From assembly GCA_964584385.1 (NCBI GenBank), contig CAZOZW010000001.1, positions 1-62,475 on the forward strand: a DNA stretch of 62,475 bases. The letters are read 5' to 3'. A program made the translations under genes and the position numbers. Source of the DNA: an uncultured Candidatus Peribacteria bacterium. GTDB taxonomy: Bacteria; Patescibacteriota; Gracilibacteria; CAIRYL01; GCA-016699755. The notes under the pieces are model-generated. The model searched no databases. It saw only the letters and a list, made by a program, of their open reading frames with translations, and was not told the origin of the DNA. Below, piece after piece: positions 8,177 through 52,735 of the stretch (its first letter is position 1; each line of letters begins with the position of its first letter).

Positions 8177-8302
8177 AAATTGCCAAAGGATTATGACAAG
8201 AAAAACATGGCAGAGCAAGCAAAAGGTTATGAAGCCGACTATTGCATCTGGTTATCGCGCTTGCCTGCCCCGCAAAGCTCTACCTCCAAGTGTCCGCGCC
8301 GT

Positions 8303-8338
8303 CCTCCCCCTTGATAAAGGGGGATTGAGGGGGATTTT
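8303..8338 (-). repeat. G5/C5 hairpin repeat, short form, inverted orientation
   Basis: cctcccccttgataaagggggattgagggggatttt. This approximates the reverse complement of the 8416 copy. Confidence 0.8.
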
Positions 8339-8415
8339 ACTACAGGAATGGATTGCGAAGATTAACTCTGGTACTAAGACATGTTTCGTTACCTTGTGAT
8401 TTGAAATAGTCGATG

Positions 8416-8467
8416 TTGAGTAAGCAGAAATCCCCCTTGTTTTCCCCCTTTACGAAAGGGGGAGGAG
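8416..8467 (+). repeat. G5/C5 hairpin repeat, short form
   Basis: ttgagtaagcagaaatcccccttgttttccccctttacgaaagggggaggag. Contains the hairpin ccccctt-tacg-aaggggg. Confidence 0.85.
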
Positions 8468-8592
8468 TCACGTTTTTTTGCTGATAATCTTATTACTCCG
8501 TTTACATAAAATGATCCTGTTGTATTTATTCTCATTGCTAGTATTCGCGATTGACCTAAAAACCCTACGGCACAATCTTTAACTACTAAGTT

Positions 8593-8638
8593 GCGGCGTT
8601 GCCCTCCCCCTTGATAAAGGGGGACTGAGGGGGATTTA
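8593..8638 (-). repeat. G5/C5 hairpin repeat, short form, inverted orientation; abuts the DUF559 stop codon
   Basis: gcggcgttgccctcccccttgataaagggggactgagggggattt. Confidence 0.8.
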
Positions 8639-8640
8639 TC

Positions 8641-9006
8641 TTACCTCAAAAGCTCTAATATCTTAGATCCAATTACTTGATGCACTCCTTCGCGATTCGT
8701 ATTCACGTCGGTATTGCTAAAGCGTAACACGGCAATCCCCTGCCCTTCGAGCAGCTCATCGCGAAGTTGATCATTTTTCTTGCCTTTGTTCCCGTAGTGC
8801 TGCCCACCATCAATCTCTATTGCGAGTCTGATTGAAGGTGCGTAAAAATCGAGGATGAAACTTAAGATGGGTTTTTGTCGATAAAAGCGAATTCCATGTA
8901 TCTGTTTCCGACGAATCATACTCCATACAATTACCTCTTGTGGAGTGGCATTTTTTCTTAAGTCTCGTGAAAATTGCTTGAGTTGGCTGTTGTATGGGGT
9001 GAACAT
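8641..9006 (-). CDS. DUF559 (Vsr-like) endonuclease domain protein
   Basis: MFTPYNSQLKQFSRDLRKNATPQEVIVWSMIRRKQIHGIRFYRQKPILSFILDFYAPSIRLAIEIDGGQHY...VLRFSNTDV matches the typical DUF559 pattern. Start moved to the ATG at 9006. Confidence 0.85.
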   Translation of the reverse strand: MFTPYNSQLKQFSRDLRKNATPQEVIVWSMIRRKQIHGIRFYRQKPILSFILDFYAPSIRLAIEIDGGQHYGNKGKKNDQLRDELLEGQGIAVLRFSNTDVNTNREGVHQVIGSKILELLR

Positions 9007-9162
9007 GTGGTTTGAGTAAGGCAGATAAAGTAGCAAAAGTTCACAAATAGAAAAAGAGGATTGTGCAAAAACCCCTTTTGAGTTTTCTTGCTATTTCGCC
9101 ATCATTTTCAGCACAGATAACTCGATTCGGCGCAAAAGATTGGCGAGAAGGCGTCTGGACAT

Positions 9163-9194
9163 TCACCTTGATAAAGGGGGTTGAGGAGGATTTT
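9163..9194 (-). repeat. degenerate copy of the hairpin repeat, inverted orientation
   Basis: tcaccttgataaagggggttgaggaggatttt. Confidence 0.55.
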
Positions 9195-9271
9195 GGTACC
9201 GCAAGGAATCGCGATAATCTACCTTGGTGCCAACAGATGCTTCGTTGCTTTGTGTCTTAATACTGAGTTAG

Positions 9272-9323
9272 TTGAGTAAGTAGAAATCCCCCTTGTTTTC
9301 CCCCTTTACGAAAGGGGGAGGAG
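9272..9323 (+). repeat. G5/C5 hairpin repeat, short form
   Basis: ttgagtaagtagaaatcccccttgttttccccctttacgaaagggggaggag. Almost identical to the 8416 copy, and the flanks (ttcgttgctttgtg, tttttttgctgat) are also shared. Confidence 0.85.
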
Positions 9324-9438
9324 TCAAGTTTTTTTGCTGATTTGCAAATTACTGGGTTTGTATTTGAATTACTCGTATTGCTACTATTCGCGAACGAGCT
9401 AAAAACCCATACGGCACAACGACCCATCTGCCACGAAT

Positions 9439-9514
9439 CGGCGTTGCCCTCCCCCTTTGCCTGCCCGCCGTAGCCTTGGCGGTGGTGGGATAAAGGGGGA
9501 TTGAGGGGGATTTT
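9439..9514 (-). repeat. hairpin repeat, medium form (internal GC hairpin insert), inverted orientation
   Basis: cggcgttgccctccccctttgcctgcccgccgtagccttggcggtggtgggataaagggggattgagggggatttt. Confidence 0.8.
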
Positions 9515-9521
9515 GCTCTGG

Positions 9522-9626
9522 TTGAGTGAGTAGAAATCCCCCTCTAACTCCCCCTTTTATGGGAGTGATGATGCAAGTTTGCTTGTTTGTGAGTTGTTGT
9601 GTTTGTTTAGGGTAAAGGGGGAGGAC
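9522..9626 (+). repeat. hairpin repeat, long form with embedded mini-ORF (9559-9615)
   Basis: ttgagtgagtagaaatccccctctaactccccctttt ATGGGAGTGATGATG...TAA agggggaggac. Confidence 0.85.
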
Positions 9627-9640
9627 AACTGCGTTGTAAC

Positions 9641-9672
9641 GCAAAAAGCCCAGCCTATTCAATAGGCTGGGC
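9641..9672 (-). terminator. rho-independent terminator of the S-layer gene
   Basis: Palindrome gcccagcctatt-c-aataggctgggc (9648-9672). On the minus strand it is followed by TTTTT (9643-9647). Confidence 0.8.
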
Positions 9673-12700: not shown

Positions 12701-13857
12701 GCACCAACAGCAGTAATATCTTCGCTAGAAGCAATACTGAAGTTGTGCTCACCACCAGAGGCAGACGCATTGATATCGCCAGCAATGATGATAGTTTTTG
12801 TTGCGTCAGCCGGAACGGTTACCGGGTCTGATGCTAAGTTCAATGGAGCGATTTCTTCGTCGTTTGTAAACGGACGATCTGTTCCACGTTGCTTGATGCC
12901 ATCGAAGACTTTAACGTCTTGAATCTCATCTTCATTACCAAGTCCACCGTGTGAAACGGTAACACCGGTAACCTCGATATCTTGATCACCATTATTGGTA
13001 AGGTCAAGTGCCAAGAATGGAACATTCGAACCATTTCGTGGAATTGAAGAACCTTCTGGGGTTTCGCTCGAAACGCTTACTTCGAGTGAACCAACCGGAG
13101 CAGGTGGATCCTCTGGATCATCTTCATCACCTGGATCTTCTGGATCCTCTGGGTCTTCTCCATCAACTGGATCTTCGGTATCGGTACAGATGTCTTCACC
13201 ATCGGCAACCTTCATCGAGTTCAAGAGAACTTTTGCTACTTCACCACGGGTAATGTTTCCGTTCGGTGAGAAAGTGGTTGCTGTGGTTCCGTTTACAATA
13301 CATTGATTGTAAGCGGTTGCTACATACTCGTAGAACCAGTCGCTTTCAGCCACATCGGTGAAAGGAGGCTCTGGCATGAGCATGGTTTCGATATCGCCGG
13401 TTAAGAGTAAAACCTTAAGCGCAGCCGATCGTGTGATCGGGCTGTTTGGGCCAAAGGTTCCGTCAGGGAATCCGTTTACGATATCGAGGCCTTTTGCTAC
13501 TTCGACATAGTCGAAGAACCAATCGTCGGCGCTAACATCGCTAAAGGTAGGATTCGCTCCGTCGGCGAATGCATCGGCGAGGTCTGATACGGTTTCACCG
13601 TAAAAGGCTTCGATCGCCAATTTCGTCAACTCGGCTCGTGTGAGTGAGTTGTTCGGAAAGTACATGGTTTTCGGAGTACCATCATCGTTATGTGTCGAGA
13701 TGATATCGTTTTCGGCGAGGTCAATGATAAACTCCTCGGCCCAATGGCCAGAAATATCAGTGAACTCAGGCACTGCTGCTGCCACAGGTGTTGCGGCGAC
13801 CGCGAATGCAACAGTCAAGCTTGCCACGCTTGCTGTGAGTTTCTTCAGAAGATTCAT
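9724..13857 (-). CDS. giant SLH-domain surface (S-layer-like) protein
   Basis: Signal peptide MNLLKKLTASVASLTVAFAVAATPVAAA. Three SLH repeats (FTDISGHWAEEFI..., FSDVSADDWFFDYVEVAKGLDIVNGFPDGTFGPNSPITRSAALKVL, FTDVAESDWFYEYVATAYNQCIVNGTTATTFSPNGNITRGEVAKVL). Acidic DPED linker, then about 1100 aa of T/D/E/G/V-rich beta-type sequence. Start moved to the ATG at 13857. Confidence 0.88.
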   Translation of the reverse strand: MNLLKKLTASVASLTVAFAVAATPVAAAVPEFTDISGHWAEEFIIDLAENDIISTHNDDGTPKTMYFPNNSLTRAELTKLAIEAFYGETVSDLADAFADGANPTFSDVSADDWFFDYVEVAKGLDIVNGFPDGTFGPNSPITRSAALKVLLLTGDIETMLMPEPPFTDVAESDWFYEYVATAYNQCIVNGTTATTFSPNGNITRGEVAKVLLNSMKVADGEDICTDTEDPVDGEDPEDPEDPGDEDDPEDPPAPVGSLEVSVSSETPEGSSIPRNGSNVPFLALDLTNNGDQDIEVTGVTVSHGGLGNEDEIQDVKVFDGIKQRGTDRPFTNDEEIAPLNLASDPVTVPADATKTIIIAGDINASASGGEHNFSIASSEDITAVGAETGGDVEIVGDFPASGETMTIANVEVGSLEFTYNNVSDNTIEVGETDVELAKIEVEAGSAEDVLLQAMTFEFNGPDDGDIGNMYIEYQGQRVSDIVELVEDEKATFDLTDTDDEGWILEDGDNRTFRIKGDILAGVNENLVVEFDEVTSDVLAQGLTFGFGVGLSETNDPLGNAGPPATGSFIGINGGDITFAIDSSSRDVAPDTDNVEFGVLTITNMGEAVELKEGLTLIGLDDVDDEDADDDDANTDISDIRLVNIETGATFMGPEDLNDKDNIVFNDETILETGETITLSIQGDVENTATEGEEYAFAIDMDTVEVEGVESNKTTKGPGGTNHDIRPSGDPSTKQYTVAKPTVTLTTKSLGDDDYVADAENVVVFEATVRANSVEDIYIRDLTFENDGAATATNSDVDDYSIYKKEGNVLTPVETGKTPTATAGVTFSSLDEDGGTSGLLVPAGDEFTIVVTANIASNPTSGRTIDLSLTAADAEDEDGDDATVSGVPVDSAIFTIQDNGSITVTVDNNKTDTELVPAGLTDIPVGVFKFEAVNESVEVEDLAVKVNEIVTGAAGFYANGITNPDAANDSDAIDAVSLYYYDDGTAVKKTSGQAASVSSVDGNDIALFQDLDLIVEDSEDLLVEVRVDLAEMDDSGSSATAESGHAFNVELILAETGETTIRGVDSGADVIPTGQGSTLINDVANYSDGAAVAMTVDSSAAFAVNDYIVIARGTPRQQVTQVTAIPDGTTITATLANTVGAAAAGDDVEDNDNVQILATNASDSIYVFNNKVIAEESANQPTAVLITGTRQEMLKFDVDFTGDTSDEPYIHRVDVTLEGSNACVDGDTTFDCDPVVGTAGIVYLYNGDNELIAATEATALDQTDFTLVVGTNDSALPLSPDVVADATTLLAGNQPGEPISVNGETYTIRADIATNTAGNTDDAITTKISINGSTPATGQDDIFWIDGGSTGADGAVVQWIDLGSASSINEIEHTRKSN
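13237..13767 (-). other. three tandem SLH (S-layer homology) modules
   Basis: See the SLH motifs above. This corresponds to residues about 31-207 counted from the 13857 start. Confidence 0.8.
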
Positions 13858-14556
13858 ATCTTCGTTATAAAAAAGAAAAATAAGAAACCTACCGCTATAC
13901 ATTATGTATTACGTAGGCGGAGTTTTCTTGGGTTTGGTTTGTGCTTCATAAAGGTTTCATTCCGATAGCCGCTGAAAGCACGCTCGGCTACGGATCTTGT
14001 GCATTGTTTTCTTCTCCGTGAATCTTTCGATACGTTTTGCCTGCAAAGAGCAAAACATATTTTGCAAACAACAATGTATTGTTTGCGGTTTCGTTGGTGT
14101 TAAGGGTCGAATCGTTTTTGGGGTTATCCCCGGAGTTGTCGTAGTTGTTTCGCGCTCCTTTGCCTCCTCGGAATTTTTTTACCCACACAGTATCTAGTAA
14201 TTCGTACCGAAAAGTCAATCGATCGATACGGATTTTGCTGTGCTTATATGCCGCAGAGTGTTGCGGCTCAAGTGGTGTGTGGGGGGTGAAAGAAAGTTCG
14301 CGACTGGTTTTCGCGACTCACACTAACTAACGCAGGGGGTGCAAAAATGTTTCAGTTTTTTTATTGATTGCTGAAGATATATGTTTTAAAGATACATTTT
14401 TGGTGTATGAAACAACCGAGACAGGCAGTTGTTCACGGCTTGGGGATTAGTGATTGTTGTGCGGTTGAAACAGGGATCGGTTTGAGCGCTTCAATTACTA
14501 TTCTAATTGATGATGGTGTATTTATGTATTGGTTTGGGTTGATTTATGGCGATGAA

Positions 14557-14659
14557 TGAGTGGGGAGAAATCACCCTCTCACACCCCCTTCTATGGGAGT
14601 GATGATGATGTTTTGCTTGATTGCAATTGAGTGTGTTTGTTGAGGCGAAAGGGGGAGGT
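14557..14659 (+). repeat. hairpin repeat, long form with mini-ORF (14593-14643)
   Basis: tgagtggggagaaatcaccctctcacacccccttct ATGGGAGTGATGATGATG...TGA ggcgaaagggggaggt. Confidence 0.85.
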
Positions 14660-14736
14660 ACGTTTCGTTGCTTTTTGGCTATTAACGGGATGAATGACCG
14701 AACAGATTGCTAACGTGAGAGTCTCGCTTTTGTAAA

Positions 14737-14787
14737 GAGCCTGTCCCGAGAGCAAAGCGGCTCGGGAGGGAATACAAGGGGGTTTTT
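14737..14787 (-). repeat. degenerate medium-form hairpin repeat, inverted orientation
   Basis: gagcctgtcccgagagcaaagcggctcgggagggaatacaagggggttttt. Confidence 0.5.
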
Positions 14788-14858
14788 GCGACAGTAAGTT
14801 GACGTGAAAGATATGTGAGAACAATGTTTCGTTGCTTTGTGATTATGTGTTGAATTAT

Positions 14859-14961
14859 TTGAGTGAAGAGAAAACCCCCTCAATCCCCCTTTAATGGGAG
14901 TGATGATGGTGATTGACTTAAGTGTGGATACTTGTGTTTGCTGAGGGCAAAGGGGGAGGAC
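14859..14961 (+). repeat. hairpin repeat, long form with mini-ORF (14894-14944)
   Basis: ttgagtgaagagaaaaccccctcaatccccctttа ATGGGAGTGATGATGGTG...TGA gggcaaagggggaggac. Confidence 0.85.
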
Positions 14962-14977
14962 GGGCGCAGCGGCGTTT

Positions 14978-15334
14978 TTATTGCCAACTGAACAGCTTTT
15001 GGAAGTTCTGCTTTAGACAGTTAATATCGTGCTGAGAAAGCCTGCCTACTGCCGCTTCGATCACGCGATCATCGATTGTAAACAGCTTCATGCGAACAAT
15101 GCATTGCCGGGGAAGACCAGCTGTTTCGTGGTCGGTGATCGGCGTATCGAGAGGAAAGCGTGAATGCTTTGCCGAAGTGATCATCGCCAATACGCTGTGC
15201 GAGATTTTTGCACCGAATTCGCTGTGCGATGAAACAACCAGCGCCGGTCTGTATTTGGTAACACTCGGAAGATCGCTGAACGGAAACGGTACGCGCACAA
15301 CTTGAAATTCGTGGTATTCATCAGGTTGGCTCAT
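14978..15334 (-). CDS. mazF: type II toxin, MazF/PemK family
   Basis: MSQPDEYHEFQVVRVPFPFSDLPSVTKYRPALVVSS...LAMITSAKHSRFPLDTPI...GLPRQCIVRMKLFTID fits the PemK-like pattern. Its start overlaps the antitoxin stop by ATGA. Confidence 0.8.
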   Translation of the reverse strand: MSQPDEYHEFQVVRVPFPFSDLPSVTKYRPALVVSSHSEFGAKISHSVLAMITSAKHSRFPLDTPITDHETAGLPRQCIVRMKLFTIDDRVIEAAVGRLSQHDINCLKQNFQKLFSWQ

Positions 15335-15564
15335 CTCCAATTTGCAAAGGTGTTGTCGTCTTCGGCAGAACCCCACTCACCGACCGTGGCATTTATCGCT
15401 GCCAGATGCTGCATGTCGATCGGTGTTGCTTTTTTAAGGGTGACGGTATCGCTCTGCCAAATAAAAATTACCGAGTCGCCTGCCTTGATGTGCAGGTTTT
15501 TTCTGATTTCGGCAGGAATCGTCGCCTGCCCCTTTTGCGTTACGCGTGAGATTTTTGAGTTCAT
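15331..15564 (-). CDS. mazE: type II antitoxin, AbrB/MazE/SpoVT fold
   Basis: MNSKISRVTQKGQATIPAEIRKNLHIKAGDSVIFIWQSDTVTLKK shows the swapped-hairpin AbrB-type motif. 77 aa, directly upstream of the toxin. Confidence 0.78.
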   Translation of the reverse strand: MNSKISRVTQKGQATIPAEIRKNLHIKAGDSVIFIWQSDTVTLKKATPIDMQHLAAINATVGEWGSAEDDNTFANWR

Positions 15565-15688
15565 GTATTACAGTAATACAGTAATAGTATAAGTGATTAC
15601 ACTTACGAATTCAATACCGTTGTATTGGCGGCTTTATAGCGCGGTTCTTAACGAAAACACGACGCCTTTTGTCAAGGACATGAATTTG

Positions 15689-15793
15689 TTGAGTGAGGAG
15701 AAACCCCTCTCTCACACCCCCCTTTTATGGGAGTGATGATGATGATTGGTTTATGTGGGAGTACTTGGGTTTGCTGAGGCGAAAGAGGGAGGA
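15689..15793 (+). repeat. hairpin repeat, long form with mini-ORF (15727-15777)
   Basis: ttgagtgaggagaaacccctctctcacacccccttt t ATGGGAGTGATGATGATG...TGA ggcgaaagagggaggat. Confidence 0.85.
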
Positions 15794-15874
15794 TGGGCGC
15801 CAAAATCACCATCGCTAAGAAGACACGAGCAGACAGACAAGGAGACAAAGAGCCTAACAGTGGAGCCGTAAGCG

Positions 15875-20037: not shown

Positions 20038-20220
20038 CGTTTCTATAAATGGGTTTGCGCGCTATAAAGAGACAACCAAAAAGACATATTCGACAACCTG
20101 ATGGACGCATAGGTTATCGATCATAAGAACGTCTTTTCATTGTAAACATCAAAGATGGATTTTGCTGCGCGTTCGTTCATTTTTGTTAATCTCATATCAA
20201 TCATCGATATAAATTCGACT

Positions 20221-20290
20221 CGGTGTTTTCCCCCTGCATGCCCTGCGTAGCCTTGGCGAAGAAGGGGTAGGGGCTTAAGGGGTTTTGAGG
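20221..20290 (-). repeat. hairpin repeat, medium form, inverted orientation (solo copy)
   Basis: cggtgttttccccctgcatgccctgcgtagccttggcgaagaaggggtaggggcttaaggggttttgagg. It shares cgtagccttggcg with the 9439 copy. Confidence 0.65.
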
Positions 20291-20639
20291 AAAGTTTATT
20301 AGGAATTGGTATCAAACAACTGCTCGCGGCAGCTTTATAATATGTGGGATACTAAAGATACGAGATGAATATGAATTGTGCTGCAGATGATTGTGTGACA
20401 TGAGTATGAAGATTGATAAACGCTTCAGTACAATGTCTTTTTTAGCTTTGAACAGAAGATTCCCGGCTCTGAATCGTTATTGATGCGATTCGGTTCTTCT
20501 ACCAAGAATGAAGTGATTTTAGAAGTGCTCCTGTCGCATTTAAAATCGTGCCGCAAAATCGTTATCGAGAACGGATATGTGACAGGAATCTCTAAAAAAC
20601 AATACCACCATTGTTAACCAATGCGCTACAATAGCATCG

Positions 20640-51175: not shown

Positions 51176-52254
51176 CCAATTTTACCGTCGGCCCTGCTAA
51201 ACTCTACCACGGTGTGGCAGATTTTTATGCCGAGCAGATTCATGCGGGCCTGGGCGAGATCAGCCACCGCAGCCCCGAATTCAGTGAGGTATCAAAAAAA
51301 GCGATGCTCGCCTTGCGTGATTTTTTTGAGATTCCCGATGATTACCGCGTGTTTTACACCTCGTCGGCAACCGAAGCGATGGAGATTTTAACCCGCTCAT
51401 GCGTGAATGATATTTCGTGCCACGTGAGTAACGGCAACTTCGGCAATGTCTGGAAAAAAACCGCCGAGCGTGCCCAAAAACAAGTCCAACTAATCAGCCA
51501 TAGCGGCGAGCGACGCGTGGAGCTAGGTGAAATACAGCCCGATCCGGCAGCGGAGATGCTGGCGATAACGGCGAACGAGACGAGCACCGGAATCGGCTAC
51601 AGTAAAGAAGAGCTGGTCGATATTCGCAATTGTTTTCCGGAGGTGCTTTTATGTGTTGATATCACCAGTGCAATGGGTGCGGTTACGTACGACATCAACC
51701 AAGCTGATGCCTGGTTTTTTTCGGTGCAAAAAGCGATGGGCTTGCCCGCCGGCTTGGGCGTGGTGATTGTGAGCCCACGAGTATGGGAAAAGGCAATCCG
51801 CCGCGAAGCCGCCGGTGAAGATGTTGGTTGTCATCATCGCTTGGTCGATCTAGAAAAAAAGATGGATGGCAAGTACCAAACGCCGACCACTCCGAATGTG
51901 ATGAACATCGGCGGACTCGGTTTTGTCTGCCAAGCGTTTCAAAAAGATTTTGGTAGCAAGGCAAACCTGTTTGCAAAAACTCATCAAAAAGCAGAGCGGT
52001 TGTATAATTTTTTCGACCATCATCCGGTATTGAACCCGGCTGTTGCGAAGGGAAAAGGTCGCTCAGAAAGCGTGATTGTAGTCGATGGACCTGAGGAGTA
52101 TTTTGCCGATATGCACCAACGACTTGCCAAGGAGGGGATTCAGGTCGGCAAAGGCTATGGCGGCGCTAAAACACGCCAAATTCGAATTGGGAATTTTCCG
52201 GTTCATACGATTTCAGATGTAGAGAATTTGCTGGGGAAGATTGAGAAGAAGTAG
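51157..52254 (+). CDS. serC: phosphoserine aminotransferase
   Basis: NFTVGPAKLYHGV...HRSPEF...NETSTGI...FFSVQKAMGLPAGLG is the class V aminotransferase / SerC pattern, adjacent to serA. Confidence 0.88.
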   Translation: MSHSFVTNFTVGPAKLYHGVADFYAEQIHAGLGEISHRSPEFSEVSKKAMLALRDFFEIPDDYRVFYTSSATEAMEILTRSCVNDISCHVSNGNFGNVWKKTAERAQKQVQLISHSGERRVELGEIQPDPAAEMLAITANETSTGIGYSKEELVDIRNCFPEVLLCVDITSAMGAVTYDINQADAWFFSVQKAMGLPAGLGVVIVSPRVWEKAIRREAAGEDVGCHHRLVDLEKKMDGKYQTPTTPNVMNIGGLGFVCQAFQKDFGSKANLFAKTHQKAERLYNFFDHHPVLNPAVAKGKGRSESVIVVDGPEEYFADMHQRLAKEGIQVGKGYGGAKTRQIRIGNFPVHTISDVENLLGKIEKK

Positions 52255-52281
52255 TCATCGCACAAAAAATCTACCTCTCTC

Positions 52282-52614
52282 TCACGGTTCAGGATTATGC
52301 ACGATATACTCGCCGATCTGCTCAAGTGCACTGTCGTTGCGGATGATGTGTTCATGGTAGCTTTGTTGCCAACCGTTTTTAATATCGGTGTTTTGTCGAT
52401 ACCATTTTGTAATCCTGCATCATTGCGTTGAATATGCAAGACACCATTAACGTAGTTCGGCATTTCACCATATGCCCCTACCGGTTATACTACCGAATAT
52501 CGCTTTTCTAATTTTTGTGCAGATCGTAATGAAATAGGCACCACTGGGCAAATAATCATAATCTTTCAGGCGGACCGAACGGCGCTTATGGAGCTTGGGG
52601 TCGAATTCCATCAT
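52282..52614 (-). pseudogene. decayed RAYT / IS200-like Y1 (HUH) transposase remnant
   Basis: Three minus-strand fragments in different frames. (1) MMEFDPKLHKRRSVRLKDYDYLPSGAYFITICTKIRKAIFGSITG...* at 52465-52614. (2) MPNYVNGVLHI from 52463. (3) GWQQSYHEHIIRNDSALEQIGEYIVHNPEP*, ending at 52282. These match the conserved blocks of REP-associated tyrosine transposases, with the middle deleted. Confidence 0.75.
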
Positions 52615-52735
52615 CAAAAGAACAAAGGAGGAGATTATTCAGCTGATGAATCGGACTTGCAAATACTTTCCTGTCTTTGTGGTGAAGAATTCCAATTCTG
52701 AAGGACGAGTAAATCACAAGTGATTTATGAAAAAT

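Follow-up and report, generated by a model that had tools for sequence, protein, structure and literature searches.

What are the G/C-rich hairpin repeats that crowd positions 8290-9630, beside the tRNA-Arg genes, of a contig from an uncultured Candidatus Peribacteria bacterium, and what spreads them? The stretch analysed (CAZOZW010000001.1, 62,475 nt; hereafter the window) belongs to a 1.9-Mb assembly of 101 contigs that is 90% complete. The original prediction, made from the letters of the window, described a modular repeat family in three length classes and suggested a RAYT-type transposase as its partner. We found an intact gene for a predicted nuclease of the DUF559 family at the centre of the cluster, overlooked in that account, and consider it probable that the repeats are a selfish-type family of non-coding hairpins, dispersed over the genome and partnered by DUF559.

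The family is real and diverse. The window contains 13 occurrences of AAAGGGGGA, where 0.38 would be expected, and 10 of the double G-box, where the expectation is 0.78. In a MAFFT alignment, the 12 listed window copies, which lie in both orientations, are homologous well past their G5/C5 runs, as had been proposed. Their consensus layout is (TTGAGTRAG)-AGAAATCCCCCT-N3-6-TCCCCCTTT-[loop]-AAAGGGGGAGGAC-(GCGCCGAYAC): a left flank, TTGAGTRAG-AGAAAT, leads into C-box 1 (TCCCCCT), followed after 3-6 nt by C-box 2 with TTT, the loop and AAAGGGGGAGGAC, after which the tail GCGCCGAYAC is often found. A unit reads C-box, C-box, loop, G-box and, on the opposite strand, C-box, loop, G-box, G-box.

The short, medium and long classes all hold in the alignment. 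Short forms have a loop of 2-4 nt and fold into a clean hairpin of 8-9 bp. Medium forms at 9440-9520 and 20215-20305 have CGCCAAGGCTACG in common, and the long forms at 9522, 14557, 14858 and 15689 share an insert of ~56 nt. All long forms have the same ends (...TCCCCCTTTAATGGGAG and GGC.AAAGGGGGAGGAC), with interiors of two unrelated classes; the insert of the window class is specific to this genome, being absent from the relatives, which share only the core. Inverted pairs and homologous spacers were likewise found as described, the spacers carrying the motif ATGYTTCGTTRCYTTGTG, and the repeats also explain the spurious, Pro/Gly-rich open reading frames (ORFs) of PLDKGGLRGI type. The cluster comprises the following features.

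8288-8650, unstranded: composite unit A (reverse copy, spacer, forward copy, spacer, reverse copy).
8290-8345, minus strand: short copy, outermost, adjoining the tRNA-Arg genes; core 8303-8337, loop GAT (nhmmer E 1e-12).
8381-8398, plus strand: conserved spacer motif ATGTTTCGTTACCTTGTG between the members of an inverted pair.
8405-8475, plus strand: short copy, core 8430-8466, loop ACG, forming an inverted pair with 8290-8345 (nhmmer E 2e-16).
8590-8660, minus strand: short copy that abuts the DUF559 stop codon and, in gene orientation, presents the 'forward' end TTGAGGTAAGATAAATCCCCCTCAGTCCCCCTTTATCAAGGGGGAGGGC (nhmmer E 6e-17).
8641-9006, minus strand: intact DUF559 gene (Vsr-like PD-(D/E)XK, predicted nuclease), 121 aa from an ATG at 9006 (PF04480, E 1.3e-30).
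9006-9030, plus strand: TTGAGTAAGGCAGATAAAG, a putative remnant of a copy's inner flank just upstream of the DUF559 start, on the strand opposite the gene (inferred by comparison with TTGAGTAAGCAGAAATCCCCC flanks).
9145-9515, unstranded: composite unit B, a direct repeat of unit A beyond the DUF559 gene.
9150-9210, minus strand: degenerate short copy upstream of DUF559 (nhmmer E 2e-10).
9237-9254, plus strand: spacer motif ATGCTTCGTTGCTTTGTG.
9261-9331, plus strand: short copy, paralogue of 8405-8475 (alignment, nhmmer).
9440-9520, minus strand: medium copy, a short-type hairpin with a loop insert.
9458-9488, unstranded: the 31-nt loop insert TGCCTGCCCGCCGTAGCCTTGGCGGTGGTGG (alignment of units A and B).
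9522-9632, plus strand: long copy with ~56 nt between CCCCCTTT and AAAGGGGG, forming an inverted pair with 9440-9520, 8 nt away (nhmmer E 5e-34).

Direct repeats bracket the nuclease gene. On the minus strand, which is the gene's orientation, the cluster runs from the long copy (reverse) through unit B, 108 nt, DUF559 and unit A to the tRNA-Arg genes; unit B reads medium forward, spacer 1, short reverse, spacer 2 and degenerate forward, and unit A reads short forward, spacer 1, short reverse, spacer 2 and short forward. The copy at 9163, predicted to be a short one, is degenerate. Units A and B are 82% identical over ~360 bp. Their only large difference is the exact 31-nt insert at 9458-9488, between CCCCCTT and GATAAAGGGGG, so the medium form is either a short form that gained a loop module or the source from which the short form lost that module precisely. 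The 31-nt module recurs at ~20 other sites in the genome, a few of them outside G5 hairpins. On folding, each inverted pair forms one long hairpin, with z -4.6 for 8290-8345/8405-8475 and z -6.3 for 9440-9520/9522-9632.

The family is not restricted to the window. Profile searches with nhmmer returned 34 significant copies on 21 contigs, and a fuzzy three-block pattern returned ~66 copies on at least 40 contigs. Sixteen of the 66 lie within ORF calls, which approximate genes here and take up 84% of the genome (P 9e-27), and the majority of these 16 ORFs are short and produced by the repeats themselves. Intergenic copies lie mostly downstream of genes, with 3 of 42 in divergent-gene intergenic regions against 24% expected. 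Local duplication aside, copies at different loci are 60-90% alike. Because six copies sit at contig edges, further copies are probably unassembled.

The gene at the centre of the cluster is intact. Its longest ORF starts at a TTG at 9036 (8641-9036, minus), its nearest solved structure is 3HRL (E 4e-10) and it retains the invariant columns D53, E64, D66 and H70 (D, ExD, H). The stop codon leads straight into the copy at 8590-8660, and the inner flank TTGAGTAAG of forward copies recurs, on the opposite strand, just upstream of the start. Both intact DUF559 domains in this genome have a core copy within 33-45 bp. For a 350-bp segment placed at random, the probability of a copy within 100 bp is ~0.017, which gives ~3e-4 for two of two.

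The second full DUF559 domain lies in frame within leuS on contig C38, with repeat units 45 nt downstream. This gene (C38:2395-5463) is one open frame of 1026 aa with the domain at the CP1 region. Three hairpin units are translated within it as linkers rich in Pro and Gly; the first is close to the N-terminus, and the other two follow the nuclease domain. In valS, one forward unit (C30:11633-11679) is in frame as 15 codons, NPPQSPFQKGEGSAP. Five genomes of the family have nothing inserted at this valS site, and two more (G006 and G007) have other hairpin content there; it is an insertion hot spot, at which the only sign of a target-site duplication is a possible AAAAA. In a neighbouring family (f2; G008-G016), valS matches are broken by 0.5-1.2 kb of extra in-frame sequence at query residues ~184-193, in ORFs of 1094-1433 aa.

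The adjacency of units and DUF559 recurs among relatives. We examined 19 DUF559 loci from 40 genomes of the same class, which are non-independent samples, using a strict double-box regular expression within 160 nt. A reverse unit was found upstream in nine loci and a forward unit downstream in nine; 12 loci had at least one unit in the expected orientation and six had both, against ~1% per 160 nt elsewhere in the same loci. By eye, most remaining loci have degenerate units. ORF-less pairs and the DUF559 cassette have the same end units both in this genome and in relatives, and the canonical element is a cassette of reverse unit, DUF559 and forward unit. In relative G023, the unit upstream of the single DUF559 gene matches 10 dispersed copies, identical over 27 nt, many of them in ORF-less pairs laid out as in the window. 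At three loci of that genome (L072, L073 and L077), the G-arm plus 17-19 nt is tandemly tripled after some units (TTTATCAAGGGGG plus spacer), which suggests slippage or repeated partial copying at the hairpin.

The association extends across phyla. A set of 80 loci, comprising the best-scoring DUF559 relatives and not a random sample, takes in Acinetobacter, Nitrospirota, Chloroflexota, Bacteroidota, Planctomycetota, Rickettsiales and Patescibacteria, among others. In these loci, three-block motifs are concentrated in the nearest 100 nt to each side of the domain. Downstream, the first 100 nt contain 35 forward motifs and later bins 7, 3, 2 and 1; upstream, the first 100 nt contain 24 reverse motifs and later bins 7, 4 and 0. 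In Escherichia coli K-12, the DUF559 gene ycjD has a three-block repeat 168 nt downstream on the same strand (chance P ~0.004), which is no. 9 in Table 1 of Holder et al. 2015 (PMC4666352), a catalogue of the repeats named in succession BoxC, PIT and TMECO (earlier Hoyne/Maher 2000, as cited in PMC4666352). The interval from ycjD to TMECO no. 9 contains a partial second copy of the final ~14 ycjD codons (…ETVLENI…LN…; NC_000913 1351204-1351420), and the ycjD stop codon falls within a degenerate CCCTCTCCC..GAGGGGG hairpin. DUF559 genes are also enriched (odds ratio 14) among predicted programmed-inversion targets (PMC9881135). We found no literature linking DUF559 to these repeats, within limited coverage of subscription journals.

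The build of the units is closest to that of BoxC/PIT/TMECO. Both consist of the same three blocks, namely C-stem, short loop, G-stem, 3-nt loop and G-stem (C-C-G on the opposite strand), and both occur as tens of dispersed, mostly intergenic copies, often in close inverted pairs, with a patchy distribution and no known function. Strain MG1655 has 23 TMECO copies, five in inverted pairs, whose distribution is patchy and tied to rearrangement; Holder et al. 2015 report no associated mobility gene and do not mention DUF559 or an endonuclease (PMC4666352). The short form fits the ITxF definition of three triplex-compatible blocks with stems of 6-15 nt and loops of 1-6 nt (PMC4666352), reading TCCCCCT, 3-6 nt, TCCCCCTT, 2-4 nt, AAGGGGGA. 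The medium and long loops of 31-57 nt exceed the 1-6 nt limit, and the stem is TCCCCCT/AGGGGGA instead of CCCTCNCCC/GGGNGAGGG, so that with C5/G5 runs for stems the TMECO consensus (CCCTCNCCC N3-6 GGGNGAGGG N3 GGGNGAGGG) is not matched. Stems of TMECO type are nevertheless found on the flanks of DUF559 in some loci of other phyla, such as L110, L154 and L159. Unlike the published motifs, the family also has in-frame genic copies.

Other known systems share single aspects of the family. ERIC/IRU elements are imperfect palindromic repeats with length classes that arise from extra blocks at fixed internal sites, as here; ERIC is enterobacterial, ~127 bp long and unrelated in sequence to these units, and we know of no associated nuclease gene. 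Rickettsia palindromic elements are palindromes read in frame, and the valS and leuS copies likewise keep the frame open, the valS insert being absent from the five related genomes. MITEs (reviewed in PMC10969869) are similar in their non-autonomous-looking, ORF-less units with terminal inverted repeats beside a gene-bearing form; the family studied here differs in having no transposase of a known insertion sequence family, no clear target-site duplication and much shorter units (~45 nt). DUF559 itself is not known as a transposase. REP/REPIN-RAYT systems (PMC3733652) have the same short GC-rich palindromes, inverted doublets that form longer hairpins, a bias to sites downstream of genes and between tandem or convergent ORFs with some genic copies, and a low-copy gene, present once or a few times per genome, flanked by members of an abundant repeat family. 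The units here, in contrast, have no GTAG/CGTC tag, and the flanked gene encodes a PD-(D/E)XK protein (DUF559) and not an HUH tyrosine transposase. Vsr-like homing endonucleases are similar in that a small Vsr-fold gene acts as a selfish insert in or between genes, and hairpins occur upstream of free-standing Vsr-like endonuclease ORFs (Dassa et al. 2009, PMC2677866; I-Bth0305I, PMC3239194). The published genes are located within group I introns or between the two halves of a split intein, without dispersed ORF-less repeats, whereas the window gene has no intron or intein signature by eye and is bracketed by a dispersed repeat family.

How might such a partnership work? The Vsr-fold nuclease would recognise the three-block hairpin, perhaps extruded or single-stranded, and its nick or cut would lead to copying of the cassette and of ORF-less derivatives. 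Only tentatively do we infer such nicking or cleavage by DUF559 as the means by which both are spread or maintained. The cluster itself is one nuclease gene within a duplicated array of full units and ORF-less cassettes, and the ORF-less inverted pairs are probably versions of the cassette without the gene, forming long hairpins as MITEs or REPINs do. The length classes probably reflect hairpin loops that take inserts, the 31-nt GC hairpin module giving the medium form and an AT-rich sequence of ~56 nt the long form. Copies probably persist where they are least harmful, downstream of genes or in frame in tolerant protein loops such as those of valS and leuS. More speculatively still, DUF559 and three-block G/C hairpins may form a widespread nuclease-miniature-repeat partnership, from the Candidate Phyla Radiation to E. 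coli, from which BoxC/PIT/TMECO could originate and in which loops would carry modules including the nuclease gene itself.

Several observations weigh against a DUF559-driven family. Two relatives (G004 and G009) carry 6 and 13 strict copies and no detected DUF559, and solo copies outnumber DUF559 genes by ~30:1. DUF559 is present in 10 of the 12 genomes with the strict pattern and in 10 of the 29 without it, and Y1 transposases do better at this level (12 of 12 versus 10 of 29). The DUF559 tree gave no resolved co-divergence with repeat type, and we rejected co-divergence of DUF559 clades with repeat types, the labels being unclustered. Some loci (L031) flank the gene with units in the opposite arrangement. 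A tblastn search of the spacers of ORF-less pairs with 18 DUF559 proteins returned noise and no DUF559 remnant, so the idea that these spacers are decayed DUF559 genes was also rejected. Copies in this genome, at 60-90% identity, give no sign of recent movement, and the system has no known nuclease activity, cut site or target-site duplication.

The two relatives without detected DUF559 and the 30:1 excess of solo copies keep alive a second explanation, which we regard as unlikely: that the repeats form a dispersed family in their own right, with DUF559 as a passenger of homing type that uses the centre of an inverted pair, or a hairpin, as its insertion site. The repeats would then be a landing pad and not the ends of an element, and something else, or nothing now, would spread them. 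ORF-less inverted pairs with centres of 8-80 nt do exist, DUF559 always lies between units, and Vsr-like nucleases are established homing endonucleases (PMC2677866, PMC3239194). The DUF559-adjacent unit of G023, however, is identical to the most uniform current solo copies, which fits joint activity, and the same build stands beside very divergent DUF559 genes across phyla, in all of which a landing pad would need to have been present beforehand.

It is rather improbable that the units are host-serving structures (terminators or insulators, mRNA stabilisers, protein-binding sites, or hotspots of recombination and instability) and DUF559 a co-localised repair or guardian nuclease. Their placement, mostly downstream of genes and rarely between divergent ones, would suit such roles, as would the reverse orientation, which scores as terminator-like (a hairpin followed by GGGGGATTTT), and the association of E. 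coli TMECO loci with rearrangement (PMC4666352). Against this, copies lie in frame within essential genes, copy number among relatives is extremely patchy (0 to 25) and PIT/TMECO showed no promoter or terminator activity (PMC4666352). The gene beside the cluster has its own canonical terminator (9648-9672), and we rejected the repeats as the terminator of that neighbour.

A further step down in probability is the proposal that these are elements of REP/REPIN type that owe their movement to a RAYT or another Y1 (HUH) transposase acting in trans. Its appeal lies in the palindromic build, the inverted doublets, the mostly extragenic placement, the presence of Y1_Tnp matches in all 12 pattern genomes and a decayed RAYT-like ORF in the window. 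At the genome level, both Y1 and DUF559 probably track genomes rich in mobile DNA. Adjacency, unlike co-occurrence, separates the two: in relatives, none of ~95 Y1 matches adjoins a strict copy, compared with 4 of 31 DUF559 matches, and in this genome none of the 12 Y1-transposase or RAYT-like loci has a copy within 1 kb. Four RAYT-like genes that we examined (on C26, C21, C40 and C67) each have their own, different flanking palindromes. At C26:22722-25069 the flanking element is GTAGAGACGCATTGCAATGCGTCTCTAC, which belongs to a classical GTAG-tagged REP family of 31 copies spread over 18 contigs; the other three genes have 35-45-nt flanking inverted repeats of their own. An unpaired GTAG (or CGTC) at one end of a 20-40 bp palindrome is the REP criterion (PMC3733652); GTAG occurs in 2 of the 12 window copies (9272 and 9522), 4 nt before the first C-box and not abutting the stem.

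The transposase that the original prediction had put forward is a decayed RAYT-like gene in two ORFs (52203-52617, minus), with an N-terminal KRRSVRLKDYDY...FITICT, YVN at the HUH position and paralogues on other contigs. Neither piece scored against Pfam, and no palindromes or repeats flank the remnant. On adjacency and the separate cognate palindromes, we rejected RAYT as the partner; the comparison with REP/BIME or MITE families with modular inserts remains a fair description of a dispersed, mostly extragenic family with inverted pairs.

That the long form encodes a small hydrophobic peptide rich in Cys (MGVMM...CVC*) or a structured small RNA is very improbable, and we rejected it. Each of the four long copies in the window does keep open a frame of 16-18 codons that starts at an ATG and ends near the G-box, but the frame is lost in the C99 copies, the long forms of C23, C26 and C15 have an unrelated insert, there is no ribosome-binding site, the folds are no better than those of shuffles (z -0.2 to -0.9), and little covariation and no Rfam match were found.

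The window holds further copies outside the cluster.

14546-14672, plus strand: long copy, followed by the spacer motif GTTTCGTTGCTTTTTG at 14662-14677 (nhmmer E 6e-34).
14722-14792, minus strand: degenerate copy with a different 28-nt hairpin insert (CCCGAGCCGCTTTGCTCTCGGG) and a decayed G-arm.
14824-14841, plus strand: spacer motif ATGTTTCGTTGCTTTGTG.
14847-14972, plus strand: long copy abutting the 3' end of a PemK/MazF-like toxin gene (nhmmer E 2e-33).
15678-15806, plus strand: long copy that lies upstream of the antitoxin-toxin pair and repeats 14847-14972 in direct orientation (81% alike).
20195-20330, minus strand: member of a ~135-bp subfamily with a central medium-type hairpin and terminal inverted repeats GATACCAATT..ATCAAT.

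Two of these had been predicted as medium copies. The one at 14737 is a copy, and the CGTAGCCTTGGCG insert claimed for it was not found, its place being taken by the other hairpin insert. The one at 20221 has the medium-type hairpin and belongs to the distinct ~135-bp subfamily with its own terminal inverted repeats. This MITE-like subfamily has ~10 further sites (for example C7:24437, C19:23523 and C70:9034), each with the medium-type G5 hairpin at its centre.

Other genes were seen between repeats. The PemK/MazF-like toxin gene (14978-15376) and its upstream AbrB/MazE-like antitoxin ORF, which together occupy 14978-15560 on the minus strand, are bracketed by the two direct long copies at 14847-14972 and 15678-15806, as direct repeats bracket DUF559. 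At C99:965-1795, a GIY-YIG gene (1255-1656, minus) lies between two long-form copies, with the CGCTAAAGCTACGC module just past its 3' end. We rejected GIY-YIG nucleases as partners of the 31-nt medium module, which is near one of seven GIY-YIG genes. Small GIY-YIG genes at C16:31333-31542, C44:214-420 and C75:7964-8173 lie between duplicated tRNA gene segments, with the same tRNA-like sequence on both sides. A 9-nt periodic repeat, in six overlapping copies, occupies 13092-13172 within the gene for a 1392-aa SLH-domain protein.

For annotation, the family accounts for odd insertions in the aminoacyl-tRNA synthetases of uncultivated bacteria, and its repeats flag places where assemblies break. 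Catalogues of BoxC/PIT/TMECO-type repeats go back to the 1990s, and the repeats are known from hundreds of genomes, with neither a partner gene nor a mechanism. A reproducible link to a small nuclease gene would offer a testable origin for such repeats. If the partnership is true, it would be analogous to RAYT-REP, with a Vsr-fold enzyme at its core, and would join it as a second nuclease-repeat system.

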